NCBI RefSeq assembly: GCF_050920415.1
Contig: NZ_CP169309.1
Origin: Escherichia coli
GTDB lineage: Bacteria > Pseudomonadota > Gammaproteobacteria > Enterobacterales > Enterobacteriaceae
Length of the DNA stretch: 64,000 nt
Reading direction: 5' to 3' (one strand)
Both the position numbers and the translations under genes were made by a program. Shown here piece by piece: positions 8,554 through 64,000 of the stretch. Position 1 is the first letter of the stretch. Each line of letters begins with the position of its first letter. A model generated the notes under the pieces. It saw only the letters and a list, made by a program, of their open reading frames with translations, did not search any database and was not told the DNA's origin.

Positions 8554-8629
8554 GCCCGGATAGCTCAGTCGGTAGAGCAGGGGATTGAAAATCCCCGTGT
8601 CCTTGGTTCGATTCCGAGTCCGGGCACCA
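8554..8629 (+). tRNA. pheU: tRNA-Phe (anticodon GAA)
   Basis: Exact match to E. coli tRNA-Phe: GCCCGGATAGCTCAGTCGGTAGAGCAGGGGATTGAAAATCCCCGTGTCCTTGGTTCGATTCCGAGTCCGGGCACCA. Confidence 0.97.
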
Positions 8630-36278: not shown

Positions 36279-37370
36279 ATGCGTTTTCTGCGCCGACCAA
36301 TATCGCTGCGCCAACGGCTGATATTGACCATTGGGGCCATTTTGTTGGTGTTTGAGTTGATCAGCGTCTTCTGGCTATGGCATGAAAGTACCGAGCAGAT
36401 TCAGCTGTTTGAGCAGGCGCTACGCGACAATCGTAACAACGATCGCCACATCATGCGTGAGATCCGCGAGGCGGTCGCCAGCCTGATTGTCCCTGGCGTC
36501 TTTATGGTCAGCCTGACGCTATTTATCTGCTATCAGGCGGTACGCCGCATCACCCGCCCGCTGGCGGAGCTGCAAAAAGAGCTGGAAGCGCGCACCGCCG
36601 ACAACTTAACGCCCATTGCCATTCACAGCGCCACCCTCGAAATCGAAGCGGTGGTTTCAGCGTTAAACGATCTGGTCAGTCGCCTGACCAACACGCTGGA
36701 TAACGAAAGGTTGTTTACCGCTGACGTCGCGCACGAACTGCGAACGCCACTGGCGGGGGTGCGTTTGCATCTGGAACTGCTGGCGAAAACGCATCACATT
36801 GATGTAGCACCGTTAGTGGCACGACTTGATCAGATGATGGAGAGTGTCTCCCAGCTACTGCAACTGGCGCGTGCCGGACAGTCATTTTCTTCCGGTAATT
36901 ATCAACATGTAAAACTGCTGGAAGATGTCATTCTCCCCTCGTATGACGAACTCAGTACCATGCTCGACCAGCGCCAGCAAACCCTGCTATTGCCAGAGAG
37001 CGCCGCCGACATCATCGTTCAGGGTGATGCAACCCTGCTGCGGATGTTATTGCGAAACCTGGTAGAAAATGCCCATCGTTACAGCCCGCAAGGCAGCAAC
37101 ATTATGATTAAGCTGCAAGACGATGGCGGAGCGGTCATGGCCGTTGAAGATGAAGGACCGGGTATTGATGAGAGTAAATGCGGGGAGTTGAGTAAAGCGT
37201 TTGTACGAATGGACAGCCGTTATGGCGGGATTGGTCTGGGGTTAAGTATTGTCAGCCGCATTACACAGTTGCATCACGGGCAGTTTTTCCTGCAAAACCG
37301 GCAAGAGACTTCCGGCACGCGGGCCTGGGTACGGCTGAAGAAAGATCAGTACGTGGCAAACCAGATATAA
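36279..37370 (+). CDS. basS: Sensor histidine kinase BasS/PmrB (363 aa)
   Basis: HisKA (DVAHELRTPLAG) and HATPase domains; ATG at 36279; ORF track begins three codons earlier (36270). Confidence 0.9.
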   Translation: MRFLRRPISLRQRLILTIGAILLVFELISVFWLWHESTEQIQLFEQALRDNRNNDRHIMREIREAVASLIVPGVFMVSLTLFICYQAVRRITRPLAELQKELEARTADNLTPIAIHSATLEIEAVVSALNDLVSRLTNTLDNERLFTADVAHELRTPLAGVRLHLELLAKTHHIDVAPLVARLDQMMESVSQLLQLARAGQSFSSGNYQHVKLLEDVILPSYDELSTMLDQRQQTLLLPESAADIIVQGDATLLRMLLRNLVENAHRYSPQGSNIMIKLQDDGGAVMAVEDEGPGIDESKCGELSKAFVRMDSRYGGIGLGLSIVSRITQLHHGQFFLQNRQETSGTRAWVRLKKDQYVANQI

Positions 37371-37439
37371 AGAAAGCTGCTGACCACCAGCACGCTGAAC
37401 ACGGTAGTTAAACTTTCATAAACACGGTTTTTCATTGCA

Positions 37440-37465
37440 CTCTCCTCCGTTAACCTGGAGGAGAG
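37440..37465. terminator. Stem-loop between convergent basS and proP
   Basis: Inverted repeat ctcctcc / ggaggag between convergent 3' ends. Confidence 0.45.
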
Positions 37466-37548
37466 TATGCGTGTCAGAGATTAAGTGAACCTTAAGAGTC
37501 AATTGTTGGCCTGATGAGACAGCATCCCATCAGGCAATTCGTTTCAGC

Positions 37549-42418: not shown

Positions 42419-42819
42419 AGAAAATTTTTCCTTAAAGCAAATTTTATTACTTTTATTTAGCCAGATTGTTTTTGAGTTCTGTTTTCGGCTTTTATAATTA
42501 CTGCAAGAAATAATTTTATATTTAGAGTGTTGTTTTTTATTAGAATAAATAACGTCTTCCGATACGTTTAAAACGTCAGAAAGATAAAAATATCATTTGA
42601 ATTAAAAAAAGAACAAGTAGAGCATTAACCTTATCTTAAATAATAAATGGAGGCAAAAAGATTATTTTCTTTTTGCGTTTCCTTTCAAATGAAAACGATC
42701 GTCGTCTAAAATCAGCAGTACCCCCGACAAACTCAGGGATTTTGTGTATAATTGCGGCCTTTTTCGGCAATCTGCCGTTTTTTGGCGCTTTTGCCCTGCT
42801 GACTTTTGAGGAAATCCAC

Positions 42820-43155
42820 ATGTCATTACCACACTGCCCAAAATGCAACTCCGAATACACCTACGAAGATAACGGCATGTACATCTGCCCGGAATGTGCC
42901 TACGAATGGAACGACGCAGAACCTGCACAGGAAAGCGACGAGCTGATCGTTAAAGATGCTAACGGCAATCTGCTGGCTGACGGCGACAGCGTTACCATCA
43001 TTAAAGATCTGAAGGTGAAAGGTAGCTCTTCGATGCTGAAGATCGGTACCAAAGTGAAAAACATTCGCCTGGTTGAAGGCGACCACAACATCGATTGCAA
43101 AATCGACGGTTTTGGTCCGATGAAACTGAAATCTGAGTTTGTGAAAAAGAACTGA
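42820..43155 (+). CDS. phnA: PhnA-family zinc-ribbon protein (YjdM, 111 aa)
   Basis: [32 protein letters not shown]... CxxC-x-CxxC zinc ribbon; start at ATG 42820 within ORF 42673-43155. Confidence 0.85.
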
Positions 43156-43187
43156 TTGTATTGCTCAATGTAATATTGGCACATGAT

Positions 43188-43335
43188 CGGTAGGCCGGAT
43201 AAGGCGCTCGCGCCGCATCCGGCTACGGTGCCGACTGCCTGATGCGACGCTCGCGCGTCTTATCAGGCCTACAAATTCTCGCACCATCCGGCAACGGTGC
43301 CTAATGCGACGCTTACCGAGTCTTATCAGCCCCCG
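43188..43335. repeat. REP / BIME cluster (about three REP units in alternating orientation)
   Basis: Units gtaggccggataaggcgctcgcgccgcatccggc, gcctgatgcgacgctcgcgcgtcttatcaggcctac and a third partial unit match the E. coli REP consensus. Confidence 0.75.
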
Positions 43336-43394
43336 CTCATCTGTATAATTTTCGAACTACACTTAACTGGCTTCTCTTAACTGAGGTCACCATC

Positions 43395-43838
43395 ATGCCG
43401 TTAAGTCCCTACCTCTCTTTTGCTGGTAACTGTTCCGATGCGATTGCCTATTATCAACGCACGTTGGGCGCGGAACTGCTTTATAAAATCAGCTTCGGCG
43501 AAATGCCGAAATCAGCGCAGGACAGCGCCGAGAACTGCCCTTCCGGTATGCAATTTCCCGATACCGCTATCGCCCATGCTAACGTGCGTATTGCCGGAAG
43601 CGATATCATGATGAGCGATGCCATACCGTCAGGAAAAGCCAGCTACTCCGGTTTTACACTGGTACTCGATTCGCAACAGGTCGAAGAAGGAAAACGCTGG
43701 TTTGATAACCTTGCTGCTAACGGAAAAATCGAAATGGCCTGGCAGGAAACTTTCTGGGCGCATGGCTTCGGCAAAGTCACCGATAAATTTGGCGTGCCGT
43801 GGATGATTAATGTCGTCAAACAACAACCAACGCACTAA
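43395..43838 (+). CDS. yjdN: Glyoxalase/VOC-fold protein YjdN (PhnB, 147 aa)
   Basis: Small soluble ORF in the conserved position between phnA and phnC. Confidence 0.75.
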   Translation: MPLSPYLSFAGNCSDAIAYYQRTLGAELLYKISFGEMPKSAQDSAENCPSGMQFPDTAIAHANVRIAGSDIMMSDAIPSGKASYSGFTLVLDSQQVEEGKRWFDNLAANGKIEMAWQETFWAHGFGKVTDKFGVPWMINVVKQQPTH

Positions 43839-43970: not shown

Positions 43971-44759
43971 ATGCAAACGATTATCCGTGTCGAGAAGCTC
44001 GCCAAAACCTTCAATCAGCATCAGGCGCTGCATGCGGTTGATCTGAACATTCATCACGGTGAAATGGTGGCTCTGCTTGGGCCGTCCGGTTCCGGCAAAT
44101 CCACCCTTTTACGTCATTTAAGCGGTTTGATTACCGGCGATAAATCTGCCGGTAGCCATATCGAGCTGCTGGGCCGCACAGTCCAACGCGAAGGCCGCCT
44201 GGCCCGCGATATCCGCAAAAGCCGCGCCAACACCGGCTACATCTTCCAACAATTCAACCTGGTGAATCGCCTGAGCGTACTGGAGAACGTGCTGATTGGC
44301 GCGCTCGGCAGCACGCCATTCTGGCGCACCTGTTTTAGCTACTTCACCCGCGAGCAGAAACAGCGCGCGTTACAGGCGCTGACCCGCGTTGGCATGGTGC
44401 ACTTTGCCCATCAGCGCGTTTCCACCCTCTCCGGCGGACAGCAGCAGCGTGTGGCGATTGCCCGTGCGCTGATGCAGCAGGCGAAGGTGATTCTGGCCGA
44501 TGAACCCATCGCCTCGCTGGACCCGGAATCGGCGCGCATCGTGATGGACACCCTGCGCGACATTAACCAGAACGACGGCATTACCGTGGTCGTCACGCTG
44601 CATCAGGTGGATTACGCCCTGCGCTACTGCGAACGCATCGTCGCCCTGCGCCAGGGGCACGTCTTCTACGACGGCAGCAGCCAACAGTTTGATAACGAAC
44701 GTTTTGACCATCTCTACCGCAGCATTAACCGCGTCGAAGAGAACGCGAAAGCTGCCTGA
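43971..44759 (+). CDS. phnC: Phosphonate ABC transporter ATP-binding protein PhnC
   Basis: Walker [13 protein letters not shown] signature LSGGQQQR, Walker B ILADEP. Confidence 0.93.
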
Positions 44760-45800: not shown

Positions 45801-45813
45801 TGTGCTCGATCGG

Positions 45814-45905
45814 TCCCCTCTCCCTTGAGGGAGAGGGTTAGGGTGAGGGGGGAAATACGCACGCTGATGCCCTCACCCCGGCCCTCTCCCACAGGGAGAG
45901 GGAGA
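45814..45905. repeat. Pair of inverted GC-rich palindromic intergenic elements (boxC-like) between phnD and phnE
   Basis: gtcccctctcccttgagggagagggttagggtgagggg and, in opposite orientation, gccctcaccccggccctctcccacagggagagggag. Confidence 0.7.
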
Positions 45906-45926
45906 AAACATTAAACGGAGCCAAAC

Positions 45927-46706
45927 ATGCAAACCATCACCATCGCCCCACCCAAGCGCAGCTGGTTCTCGCTTCTGAGCTGGGCCATTGTTCTCGCCGT
46001 GCTGGTCGTCTCGTGGCAGGGCGCGGAAATGGCCCCGCTCACGCTGATTAAAGACGGCGGCAACATGGCGACGTTCGCCGCCGACTTCTTCCCGCCCGAT
46101 TTCAGCCAGTGGCAGGATTACCTCACCGAAATGGCCGTCACGCTGCAAATCGCCGTCTGGGGCACTGCGCTGGCAGTCGTTCTCTCCATCCCCTTCGGCC
46201 TGATGAGCGCCGAAAACCTGGTGCCGTGGTGGGTTTACCAGCCCGTTCGCCGCCTGATGGACGCCTGCCGCGCCATTAACGAGATGGTCTTCGCCATGCT
46301 GTTCGTGGTCGCCGTCGGTCTCGGTCCGTTCGCTGGCGTACTGGCGCTGTTTATCCACACCACCGGCGTGCTCTCCAAACTGCTTTCCGAAGCGGTGGAA
46401 GCGATTGAACCCGGCCCGGTGGAAGGCATTCGCGCCACCGGTGCCAATAAGCTCGAAGAGATCCTCTACGGCGTGCTGCCGCAGGTCATGCCGCTACTGA
46501 TTTCCTACTCACTCTATCGTTTCGAATCCAACGTGCGTTCCGCCACCGTTGTTGGCATGGTCGGCGCTGGCGGAATTGGCGTCACGCTGTGGGAAGCGAT
46601 TCGCGGTTTCCAGTTCCAGCAAACCTGCGCCCTGATGGTGCTGATTATCGTCACGGTCAGCCTGCTGGATTTCCTCTCTCAACGGTTGCGTAAGCACTTT
46701 ATCTGA
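45927..46706 (+). CDS. phnE: Phosphonate ABC transporter permease PhnE, uninterrupted frame (259 aa)
   Basis: Single continuous ORF with ABC permease EAA-like loop; no frameshift within the window. Confidence 0.9.
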
Positions 46707-51143: not shown

Positions 51144-51165
51144 GTTGCAACACTTTGCGCACTGA

Positions 51166-51275
51166 TCCCCTCACCCCGGCCCTCTCCCGGAGGGAGAGGG
51201 AGAAAACCGGCGCAATATTCAACACCGTGCACAAGCGGTCCCCTCGCCCCTTTGGGGAGAGGGTTAGGGTGAGGG
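51166..51275. repeat. Second pair of the same inverted GC-rich palindromic elements, between phnK and phnL
   Basis: tcccctcaccccggccctctcccggagggagagggag and gtcccctcgcccctttggggagagggttagggtgagggg; same family as 45814-45905. Confidence 0.7.
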
Positions 51276-51320
51276 GCAATGTGCGCACCGCTCCCAAACA
51301 TGCGAACCACGAGGCGAAAA

Positions 51321-55304: not shown

Positions 55305-55517
55305 TCAATTTTTCCGCTGCTCTATTGCCGTAATCGCCTCCACGCGTTGTTGATGACGACCGCCTTCGTACTGCGCGCCCAGCCACGCATCCACAATCAT
55401 TTTTGCCAGTTCGAGGCCAACCACTCGTGAACCAAAAGCCAGTGCAACTTCACTGGCGTAATGCGGATAATCAGTGCGCTCTGACGACCTGGTTTCTTTA
55501 TCAATCCCCTCACTCAT
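55305..55517 (-). pseudogene. rpiB: Decayed remnant of ribose-5-phosphate isomerase B / allose-6-phosphate isomerase (rpiB)
   Basis: 70-codon frame MSEGIDKETRSSERTDYPHYASEVALAFGSRVVGLELAKMIVDAWLGAQYEGGRHQQRVEAITAIEQRKN retains the RpiB/LacAB SxxRTDYP and C-terminal GGRHQQR segments but lacks the N-terminal MKIAxGxDHxG segment and the central GILICGTGxGxSIAANK active-site segment. Confidence 0.55.
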
Positions 55518-55874
55518 TGACTATGAATAAAAGGCTGGCACAGCAACGCAGAATCCTGCGGTGCCAGCGACATGACCGCCCATTGCTCCGGTACGTTTTT
55601 TAATAAGAAACACCGGTTGCATTGATTAATTGTGCTCAGTATTTGCCGAAGTACAATATATATAATAAATATATAAAACACCTCATATTATTTACAGAGA
55701 TAATGAATTCGCGTACTTTTCCCTCTTCAGCACAAATGCCTAATAAAATGGCTCGTTCCGCTCACACTTCCACTTATTAAAGTCGCAAATTCCCAATTAT
55801 GATAACGCCAGCTTTAAATGACGTATTTTGCATGGATTACATATTTACGACATAAATGATAAATGGAGATTTAT

Positions 55875-63105: not shown

Positions 63106-64000
63106 ATGAAAAAAGTCGTCACGGTTTGCCCCTATTGCGCATCAGGTTGCAAAATCAACCTGGTCGTCGATAACGGCAAAATCGTCCGGGCGGAGGCAGC
63201 GCAGGGGAAAACCAACCAGGGTACCCTGTGTCTGAAGGGTTATTATGGCTGGGACTTCATTAACGATACCCAGATCCTGACCCCGCGCCTGAAAACCCCC
63301 ATGATCCGTCGCCAGCGTGGCGGCAAACTCGAACCTGTTTCCTGGGATGAGGCACTGAATTACGTTGCCGAGCGCCTGAGCGCCATCAAAGAGAAGTACG
63401 GTCCGGATGCCATCCAGACGACCGGCTCCTCGCGTGGTACGGGTAACGAAACCAACTATGTAATGCAAAAATTTGCGCGCGCCGTTATTGGTACCAATAA
63501 CGTTGACTGCTGCGCTCGTGTCTGACACGGCCCATCGGTTGCAGGTCTGCACCAATCGGTCGGTAATGGCGCAATGAGCAATGCTATTAACGAAATTGAT
63601 AATACCGATTTAGTGTTCGTTTTCGGGTACAACCCGGCGGATTCCCACCCTATCGTGGCGAATCACGTAATTAACGCTAAACGTAACGGGGCGAAAATTA
63701 TCGTCTGCGATCCGCGCAAAATTGAAACCGCGCGCATTGCTGACATGCACATTGCACTGAAAAACGGCTCGAATATCGCGCTGTTGAATGCGATGGGCCA
63801 TGTCATTATTGAAGAAAATCTGTACGACAAAGCGTTCGTCGCTTCCCGTACAGAAGGCTTTGAAGAGTATCGTAAAATCGTTGAAGGCTACACGCCGGAG
63901 TCGGTTGAAGATATCACCGGCGTTAGCGCCAGTGAGATTCGTCAGGCAGCGCGGATGTATGCCCAGGCGGAAAGCGCAGCCATTCTGTGGGGCATGGGTG
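63106..64000 (+). CDS. fdhF: Formate dehydrogenase H selenoprotein FdhF, 5' portion (truncated by window end); codon 140 is an in-frame TGA read as selenocysteine
   Basis: MKKVVTVCPYCASGCKINLVVDNGKIVRAEAAQGKTNQGTLCLKGYYGWDF... molybdopterin oxidoreductase N-terminus; frame continues unbroken after TGA at 63523-63525 to the window end (HGPSVAGLHQSVGNGAMSNAINEIDNTDLVFVFGYNPADSHPIV...). Confidence 0.93.
63526..63570 (+). other. SECIS stem-loop directing selenocysteine insertion at the fdhF UGA
   Basis: Immediately 3' of the TGA: cacggcccatcggttgcaggtctgcaccaatcggtcggtaatggc, matching the recalled fdhF SECIS hairpin. Confidence 0.8.

Follow-up and report, generated by a model that had tools for sequence, protein, structure and literature searches.

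REP elements of Escherichia coli are imperfect palindromes of 30-40 nt that fit a Y, Z1 or Z2 consensus. They are defined by a GTAG/CTAC tetranucleotide at the foot of a stem that carries a mismatch bulge, and they are assembled into composite elements, of which BIME-1 joins a Y unit to a Z1 unit through a long L linker with an IHF site and BIME-2 joins a Y unit to a Z2 unit in inverse orientation through a short linker, in tandem copies that vary in number between strains (PMC3333891). The closest described relative of the cluster analysed here lies between yjdM and yjdN of Escherichia coli K-12, where an intergenic region of 657 bp holds six Y-linker-Z2 units of approximately 100 nt each, that is 12 palindromic units, and is named REP325 by Qian et al. 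2015 (PMC4550694) and by Harris et al. 2026 (preprint). The preprint is the main functional source for this element and the following results are taken from it. In K-12, yjdM and yjdN belong to a single operon, and deletion of REP325 alters growth and the expression of both neighbouring genes, with yjdM RNA going down, yjdN RNA going up and the ratio of the two falling from approximately 35 to approximately 1. When plasmids with and without REP325 were compared, yjdM RNA was more than 160-fold higher and yjdN RNA approximately 8-fold lower in its presence, and transcript ends formed a ladder at the REP325 hairpins. Sensitivity to the Rho inhibitor bicyclomycin (BCM) was confined to the full array of 12 hairpins, and in constructs with 2-4 hairpins Rho dependence was not seen and 3' ends formed only in part (Harris et al. 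2026).

The window, meaning the whole 64-kb stretch of E. coli DNA that was analysed, is collinear, in the reverse orientation, with the groES-mdtN segment of K-12, with 94-97.6% identity, and a 100% identical E. coli chromosome is annotated with the same genes. The REP/BIME stretch (43188-43335) sits inside a 239-bp intergenic region between yjdM, also called phnA (42820..43155, + strand), an open reading frame annotated as zinc-ribbon protein YjdM in the identical genome, the 3' UTR of which contains the repeats, and yjdN (43395..43838, + strand), an open reading frame with the same annotation support and the downstream gene of the operon described for K-12, reached only by read-through of the repeats; phnC follows yjdN in the window. 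The repeats are thus extragenic, as they follow the yjdM stop (43155) and precede the yjdN start (43395), and a 40-residue open reading frame on the - strand (43165-43287) was treated as a non-gene, being made of REP sequence.

Unit 1 (43190..43226, + strand) is a Y-type REP, GTAG-first on the mRNA strand, with its palindrome core at 43194-43223. It is followed by an inner linker of 13 nt between the Y and Z2 cores (TACGGTGCCGACT, 43224..43236, + strand), the first three bases of which overlap the end of unit 1, and by unit 2 (43237..43272, + strand), a Z2-type REP in inverse orientation. The tetranucleotides expected at the stem foot are present in both units, as GTAG at 43190-43193 and the complementary CTAC at 43269-43272. 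The Y pattern matched 43194-43223 on the - strand and the Z2 pattern matched 43237-43268 on the + strand, each with 0 mismatches, and neither pattern gave a match in 100 shuffles of the window; the consensus patterns themselves were cross-checked by the Rfam match and by identity to the published K-12 units. Units 1 and 2, together with the degenerate unit 3 described below, are the only REPs of Y/Z type within the 64-kb window. A scan with Rfam assigned 43193..43269 (+, the transcribed strand) to the naRNA4 family RF02564 over model positions 1-77 of 77, with 99.2 bits against a gathering score of 59.5 and E = 7e-17 for the whole window, so that Y unit, linker and Z2 unit make up a single complete BIME-2/naRNA4 unit. 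The cluster is real, far beyond chance, and the preliminary description was right to place a REP/BIME cluster downstream of phnA at 43188-43335, although its unit count and orientation need revision.

That description had counted three REP-like units in alternating orientation. Two intact inverted units are present, but the third (43299..43331, + strand) is a Z2-type REP that has decayed and lacks a CTAC foot; since units 2 and 3 share one orientation, the three units do not alternate. The comparison with the REP consensus classes (Y, Z1, Z2), proposed as a check, was passed by units 1 and 2 without a mismatch, whereas unit 3 carries 3 mismatches to the Z2 pattern and remained below thresholds in both Rfam scans. 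Relative to its closest intact relative, the terminal Z2 unit of locus L026, it has three stem-disrupting substitutions on our reading of both sequences. Neither CTAC nor a significant hairpin is found in unit 3, and it is probably a non-functional remnant. Between units 2 and 3 lies a segment (43273..43298, + strand) in which the inter-unit linker, or 'U motif' (AAATTCTCGCACCATCC), is fused to what is left of the next inner linker (GGCAACGGT). The history of the allele was derived from alignment with the 4-unit alleles of O157:H7 and Escherichia sp. E1V33 in combination with unit-by-unit decomposition, and this segment proved to be the meeting point of two deletions, one of 31 nt that eliminated the second Y unit completely and is bounded by copies of the microhomology CATCCG, and one of 7 nt (GACTGCC) from the next inner linker. 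The sequence CACCATCCGGCAACGGTGCC, which is the inter-unit linker joined to the final bases of the deleted Y unit and not a palindromic unit, was probably mistaken for an inverted unit in the preliminary description. The locus is present as a rare short allele, in which a decayed half unit follows a single intact Y-linker-Z2 unit.

The cluster is the E. coli REP325/naRNA4 BIME-2 element in the yjdM 3' UTR, which has already been published and studied; the preliminary description, which identified the repeats by type, had not recognised this named element. The K-12 RefSeq annotation contains no REP features at yjdM-yjdN and orthology was therefore established from sequence and literature. Genomic position and flanking genes are shared with K-12 REP325, as are the order of units along transcription (Y, then Z2), the 13-nt inner linker and the 'U' linker, and the Y core of the window equals that of the first K-12 unit, while its Z2 core equals that of the last. 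The differences are that the window has one intact unit and a decayed half unit in place of six units, that it has 20 extra nt from the stop codon to the first REP, that the foot of unit 1 is GTAG in the window and GTAA in K-12, and that the flanking coding DNA is 96-97% identical. Matches to naRNA4 in the yjdM-yjdN intergenic region number six in K-12, two in O157 and one in O102:H6. The naRNA4 (CssrE) family RF02564 is matched by the window over its full length, on the transcribed strand and with a score above the gathering threshold, but in a single copy, and the HU/nucleoid function proposed for the family is contested.

The composition of the pair, with Y on the - strand (43194-43223), Z2 on the + strand (43237-43268) and a 13-nt linker, is that of BIME-2, and so is the variation in copy number, since other E. 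coli genomes carry 1, 2, 4, 5 or 6 Y-Z2 units at this locus. Identity with BIME-1 (the IHF-binding RIP/RIB) was considered and rejected. Both combine a Y unit with a second unit in inverted orientation, but here the partner is Z2 and not Z1, and the linker is 13 nt long and not the long conserved L motif. The IHF consensus WATCAANNNNTTR had no match in 43156-43394, the nearest one lying at 44682. Binding of IHF, attributed to the repeats beforehand, is thus not upheld for this locus, as IHF sites are a feature of the BIME-1 L linker and the yjdM-yjdN region has no IHF consensus.

Folding of the units as RNA gave -24.1 kcal/mol (z -2.9) for the hairpin of unit 1 and -21.4 kcal/mol (z -5.6) for that of unit 2, both predicted with the internal loops typical of REPs, and an alternative fold in which units 1 and 2 pair as a single long Y:Z2 hairpin reached -51.2 kcal/mol. 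Unit 3 folded at only -6.8 kcal/mol (z +0.42), and 127 of 200 shuffles folded at least as well, so that the expected folding held for units 1 and 2 but not for unit 3, which is no better than shuffled sequence. Both hairpins resemble those of intrinsic (Rho-independent) terminators in being GC-rich and on the 3' side of a gene, but they differ in having no U-run; the sequence 3' of unit 2 is CCTACAAATTCTC and that 3' of unit 3 is CCCCCGCTCATC. An intrinsic terminator was rejected as a reading of the cluster, as a scan of the + strand from yjdM to yjdN (43156-43394) found none. The proposal that the repeats account for the missing terminator after phnA is accordingly sound in so far as an intrinsic terminator is indeed absent from this strand. 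However, yjdM and yjdN are one operon in K-12, and the element is therefore an attenuator within an operon and not a stand-in for a terminator at its end.

Variation of the locus within the species was surveyed using a query that consisted of the two coding flanks only; of the 5,426 complete genomes of E. coli, 5,417 contained a match. The similarity ranking was sampled at regular intervals to give 60 records, a sample that is not random, and 59 of them span both flanks. Two units in 157-159 bp were found in 39 of these 59 genomes, four units in 257-258 bp in five, eight units in 457-459 bp in three, ten units in 557 bp in four and 12 units in 657 bp in seven, several of the last being laboratory derivatives of K-12; the window allele, with two units and a remnant in 239 bp, was met in one. 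The length of the locus thus changes among E. coli in steps of approximately 100 nt, from 2 to 12 units, and approximately two thirds of the sampled genomes have only 2 units. Unit counts were confirmed for five alleles by unit-by-unit decomposition. All examined alleles retain the first Y-Z2 pair intact, with arms that are exact in the window and in five E. coli genomes and with at most 1 mismatch per unit in Escherichia sp. E1V33, and the inner linker is constant in length and near-identical in sequence across these alleles. The range of 2-12 units and the one decayed unit argue for weak constraint beyond the first Y-Z2 pair.

Among the 5,426 complete genomes, 17 records, representing approximately 15 genomes, contain the exact allele of the window with an identity of at least 99%. 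Its 20 extra nt (CTCAATGTAATATTGGCACA, 43164..43183, + strand), which the intergenic comparison placed between the yjdM stop and unit 1 as specific to the lineage, gave nothing when searched, with flank and as an exact sequence, against species-representative genomes. The yjdM/yjdN coding flanks (42756-43794) are at least 99% identical in 14 records only and 95-99% identical in 5,395; the best flank match outside the lineage of the window, among the sampled rows, is 97.3%. Identity to K-12 is 94-96% in the phn operon and approximately 97.5% in the initial 43 kb of the window. The divergence of flanks and phn operon therefore indicates that the window either belongs to a lineage of E. coli that has been sparsely sampled or has a divergent haplotype in this region.

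Across the Enterobacteriaceae, 43 species representatives with yjdM followed by yjdN were compared, including members of Escherichia, Salmonella, Citrobacter, Enterobacter, Klebsiella, Kluyvera, Leclercia and Kosakonia. Their intergenic regions measure 80-260 nt, with one outlier of 696 nt, and all 43 contain a GC-rich hairpin of -17 to -36 kcal/mol, which mostly starts no more than approximately 45 nt past the yjdM stop. The hairpin is usually formed by the REP type of the genus itself; in several Citrobacter species a true terminator, hairpin plus T-run, occupies the position, and the Y+Z2 form of BIME-2 was seen in Escherichia only. As a hairpin is present in all 43 representatives and its type varies, it follows that a hairpin has long been a feature of this site and that its sequence family can be replaced.

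Several further features of the window were recorded in the course of the analysis. Directly 5' of the yjdN start, a stretch of approximately 40 nt (43355-43394, aaCTACACTTAAcgGGcTtcTcTTACcTGAGGTaA.gATt) is conserved in many enterobacterial genera, which is not true of the remaining intergenic region; RNAalifold gave no consensus structure for this leader, a perfect TATAAT (43344-43349) lies just upstream of it, and the stretch may serve as promoter, operator or leader. In front of the yjdM start codon, 42724-42787 contains a promoter-like CCGACA-17-TATAAT with 10/12 matches, and a terminator-like hairpin with a T-run (CGGCAATCTGCCG TTTTTTGG, 42765-42787) is located between the promoter-like site and the start codon; the two together may be a candidate leader attenuator. 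The other GC-rich repeats of the window are inverted BoxC/intrastrand-triplex (TMECO) pairs, CCCTCTCCC..GGGAGAGGGTTAGGGTGAGGGG, at 45801-45915 (phnD-phnE) and 51145-51302 (phnK-phnL). TRIP1 (PMC10888264) was tried as an identity for them without a match, and it was the BoxC/TMECO paper (PMC4666352) that matched. K-12 has REP-like units at both sites instead, and none of the 23 K-12 TMECOs of PMC4666352 is at phnD-phnE or phnK-phnL; K-12 TMECO no. 22 (4,314,285-4,314,320, near phnP) falls inside a stretch of approximately 112 nt that is absent from the window at approximately 54874. Also absent, at 55442-55651, is the alsRBACEK block with part of rpiB (approximately 6.8 kb; K-12 4,306,822-4,313,662). 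The phnE gene (45927-46706) appears as one intact open reading frame of 259 residues; the annotations of K-12 and of some other strains list it as a pseudogene with a frameshift. Rfam matches above the gathering score were further obtained for the sRNA STnc630 (37339-37504, - strand, 181.6 bits), a SECIS_2 selenocysteine insertion element (63518-63572, + strand, 87.1 bits) and a tRNA (8554-8626, + strand).

With respect to function, the role of mRNA stabiliser or terminator suggested for the repeats agrees with what has been demonstrated experimentally for the K-12 ortholog REP325, as stabiliser and attenuator (Harris et al. 2026 preprint). By analogy, the short allele of the window probably works as a stabiliser and attenuator by the same mechanism, using two hairpins, and from the experiments on the K-12 allele we infer that it does what REP325 does, more weakly. 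The repeats would be transcribed from the yjdM promoter, and two stable hairpins, or one long Y:Z2 hairpin, would form on the 3' side of the yjdM message. These structures would stop 3'->5' exonucleases, thereby protecting yjdM mRNA, and would end some transcripts before yjdN, thereby lowering yjdN relative to yjdM. With two working hairpins against twelve, attenuation is expected to be weaker and not detectably Rho-dependent; given that the 2-4 hairpin constructs displayed no Rho dependence and formed 3' ends only in part, attenuation by the short allele may be slight. The two intact hairpins most likely act as a barrier to 3'-exonucleases for yjdM mRNA and, ahead of yjdN, as an attenuator that is leaky and largely independent of Rho. 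As DNA, the Y unit of the window is a plausible candidate for a preferred gyrase site.

The other readings of the locus differ in the level at which the repeats would act, or deny that they act. If the Y-Z2 unit were transcribed as naRNA4 and, together with HU, bridged cruciform REP DNA so as to condense the chromosome, the full-length Rfam match would be explained, and Qian et al. 2015 (PMC4550694) reported HU binding, decondensed nucleoids after deletion of REP325 and rescue by naRNA4. Harris et al. 2026, however, obtained no stable ternary complex of HU, cruciform DNA and naRNA4 (HU alone bound naRNA4), observed nucleoids of unchanged size upon deletion or overexpression, found no REP-REP contacts in Hi-C data and estimated approximately 1-2 copies of REP325 RNA per cell. 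Most sampled E. coli genomes moreover have a single unit, and the array of the window lineage is partly decayed. A nucleoid-organising RNA is considered highly improbable here. An element acting as DNA, either as a strong gyrase site or as a topological insulator absorbing supercoiling between yjdM and the phn operon, fares no better and is regarded as very unlikely. The locus has the Y+Z2 composition of the BIME-2 elements in which gyrase cleavage sites are enriched, mostly at Y units, with a signal that persists and even rises under rifampicin (PMC6379681), but gyrase cleaves only a subset of BIME-2 elements (PMC6379681) and the window allele has only one Y unit. The Topo-seq paper and its supplements (PMC6379681) do not name yjdM, yjdN, phnA or REP325.

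An absence of any selected function at this site in the window lineage, with the repeats a neutral passenger of REP/RAYT-type proliferation and repeat slippage, would fit the range of 2 to 12 units at one locus, the decay of one unit, the two deletions at microhomologies and the general property of BIME-2 elements to differ in copy number between strains (PMC3333891). Set against this are the first Y-Z2 pair, which no examined allele has lost, the hairpin between yjdM and yjdN in 43/43 species representatives of many genera, and the effect of the K-12 deletion on growth and on the expression of both neighbours, and we consider neutrality unlikely. Returning to the stabiliser and attenuator, the natural allelic series (2, 4, 8, 10 and 12 units and the decayed '2.5-unit' allele) may be a strain-specific dial of yjdM/yjdN expression, and in the window lineage the 20-nt insertion and the loss of the second Y unit could have shifted yjdM translation and yjdN read-through relative to other E. 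coli; this extension is tentative and is judged less likely than not. The distance from the yjdM stop to the foot of unit 1 is 14 nt in K-12-type alleles and 34 nt in the window. Liang et al. 2015 (cited through PMC12306157) reported that terminating ribosomes are stalled by REPs less than 16 nt from a stop codon, and the 34-nt spacing puts the first REP outside that range, the relevance of which is speculation.

As the element, its family and the function of the K-12 ortholog have all been published, the locus has little value as a discovery, and its value is that of a natural variant in which a Y unit is deleted, a Z2 unit decayed and the first REP displaced. The 12-unit REP325 of K-12 serves as a model for REP function, yet most of the sampled E. 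coli genomes carry 2 units, and the set of alleles described here could help to show how far stabilisation, read-through and Rho dependence are governed by the number of hairpins and their spacing from the stop codon.
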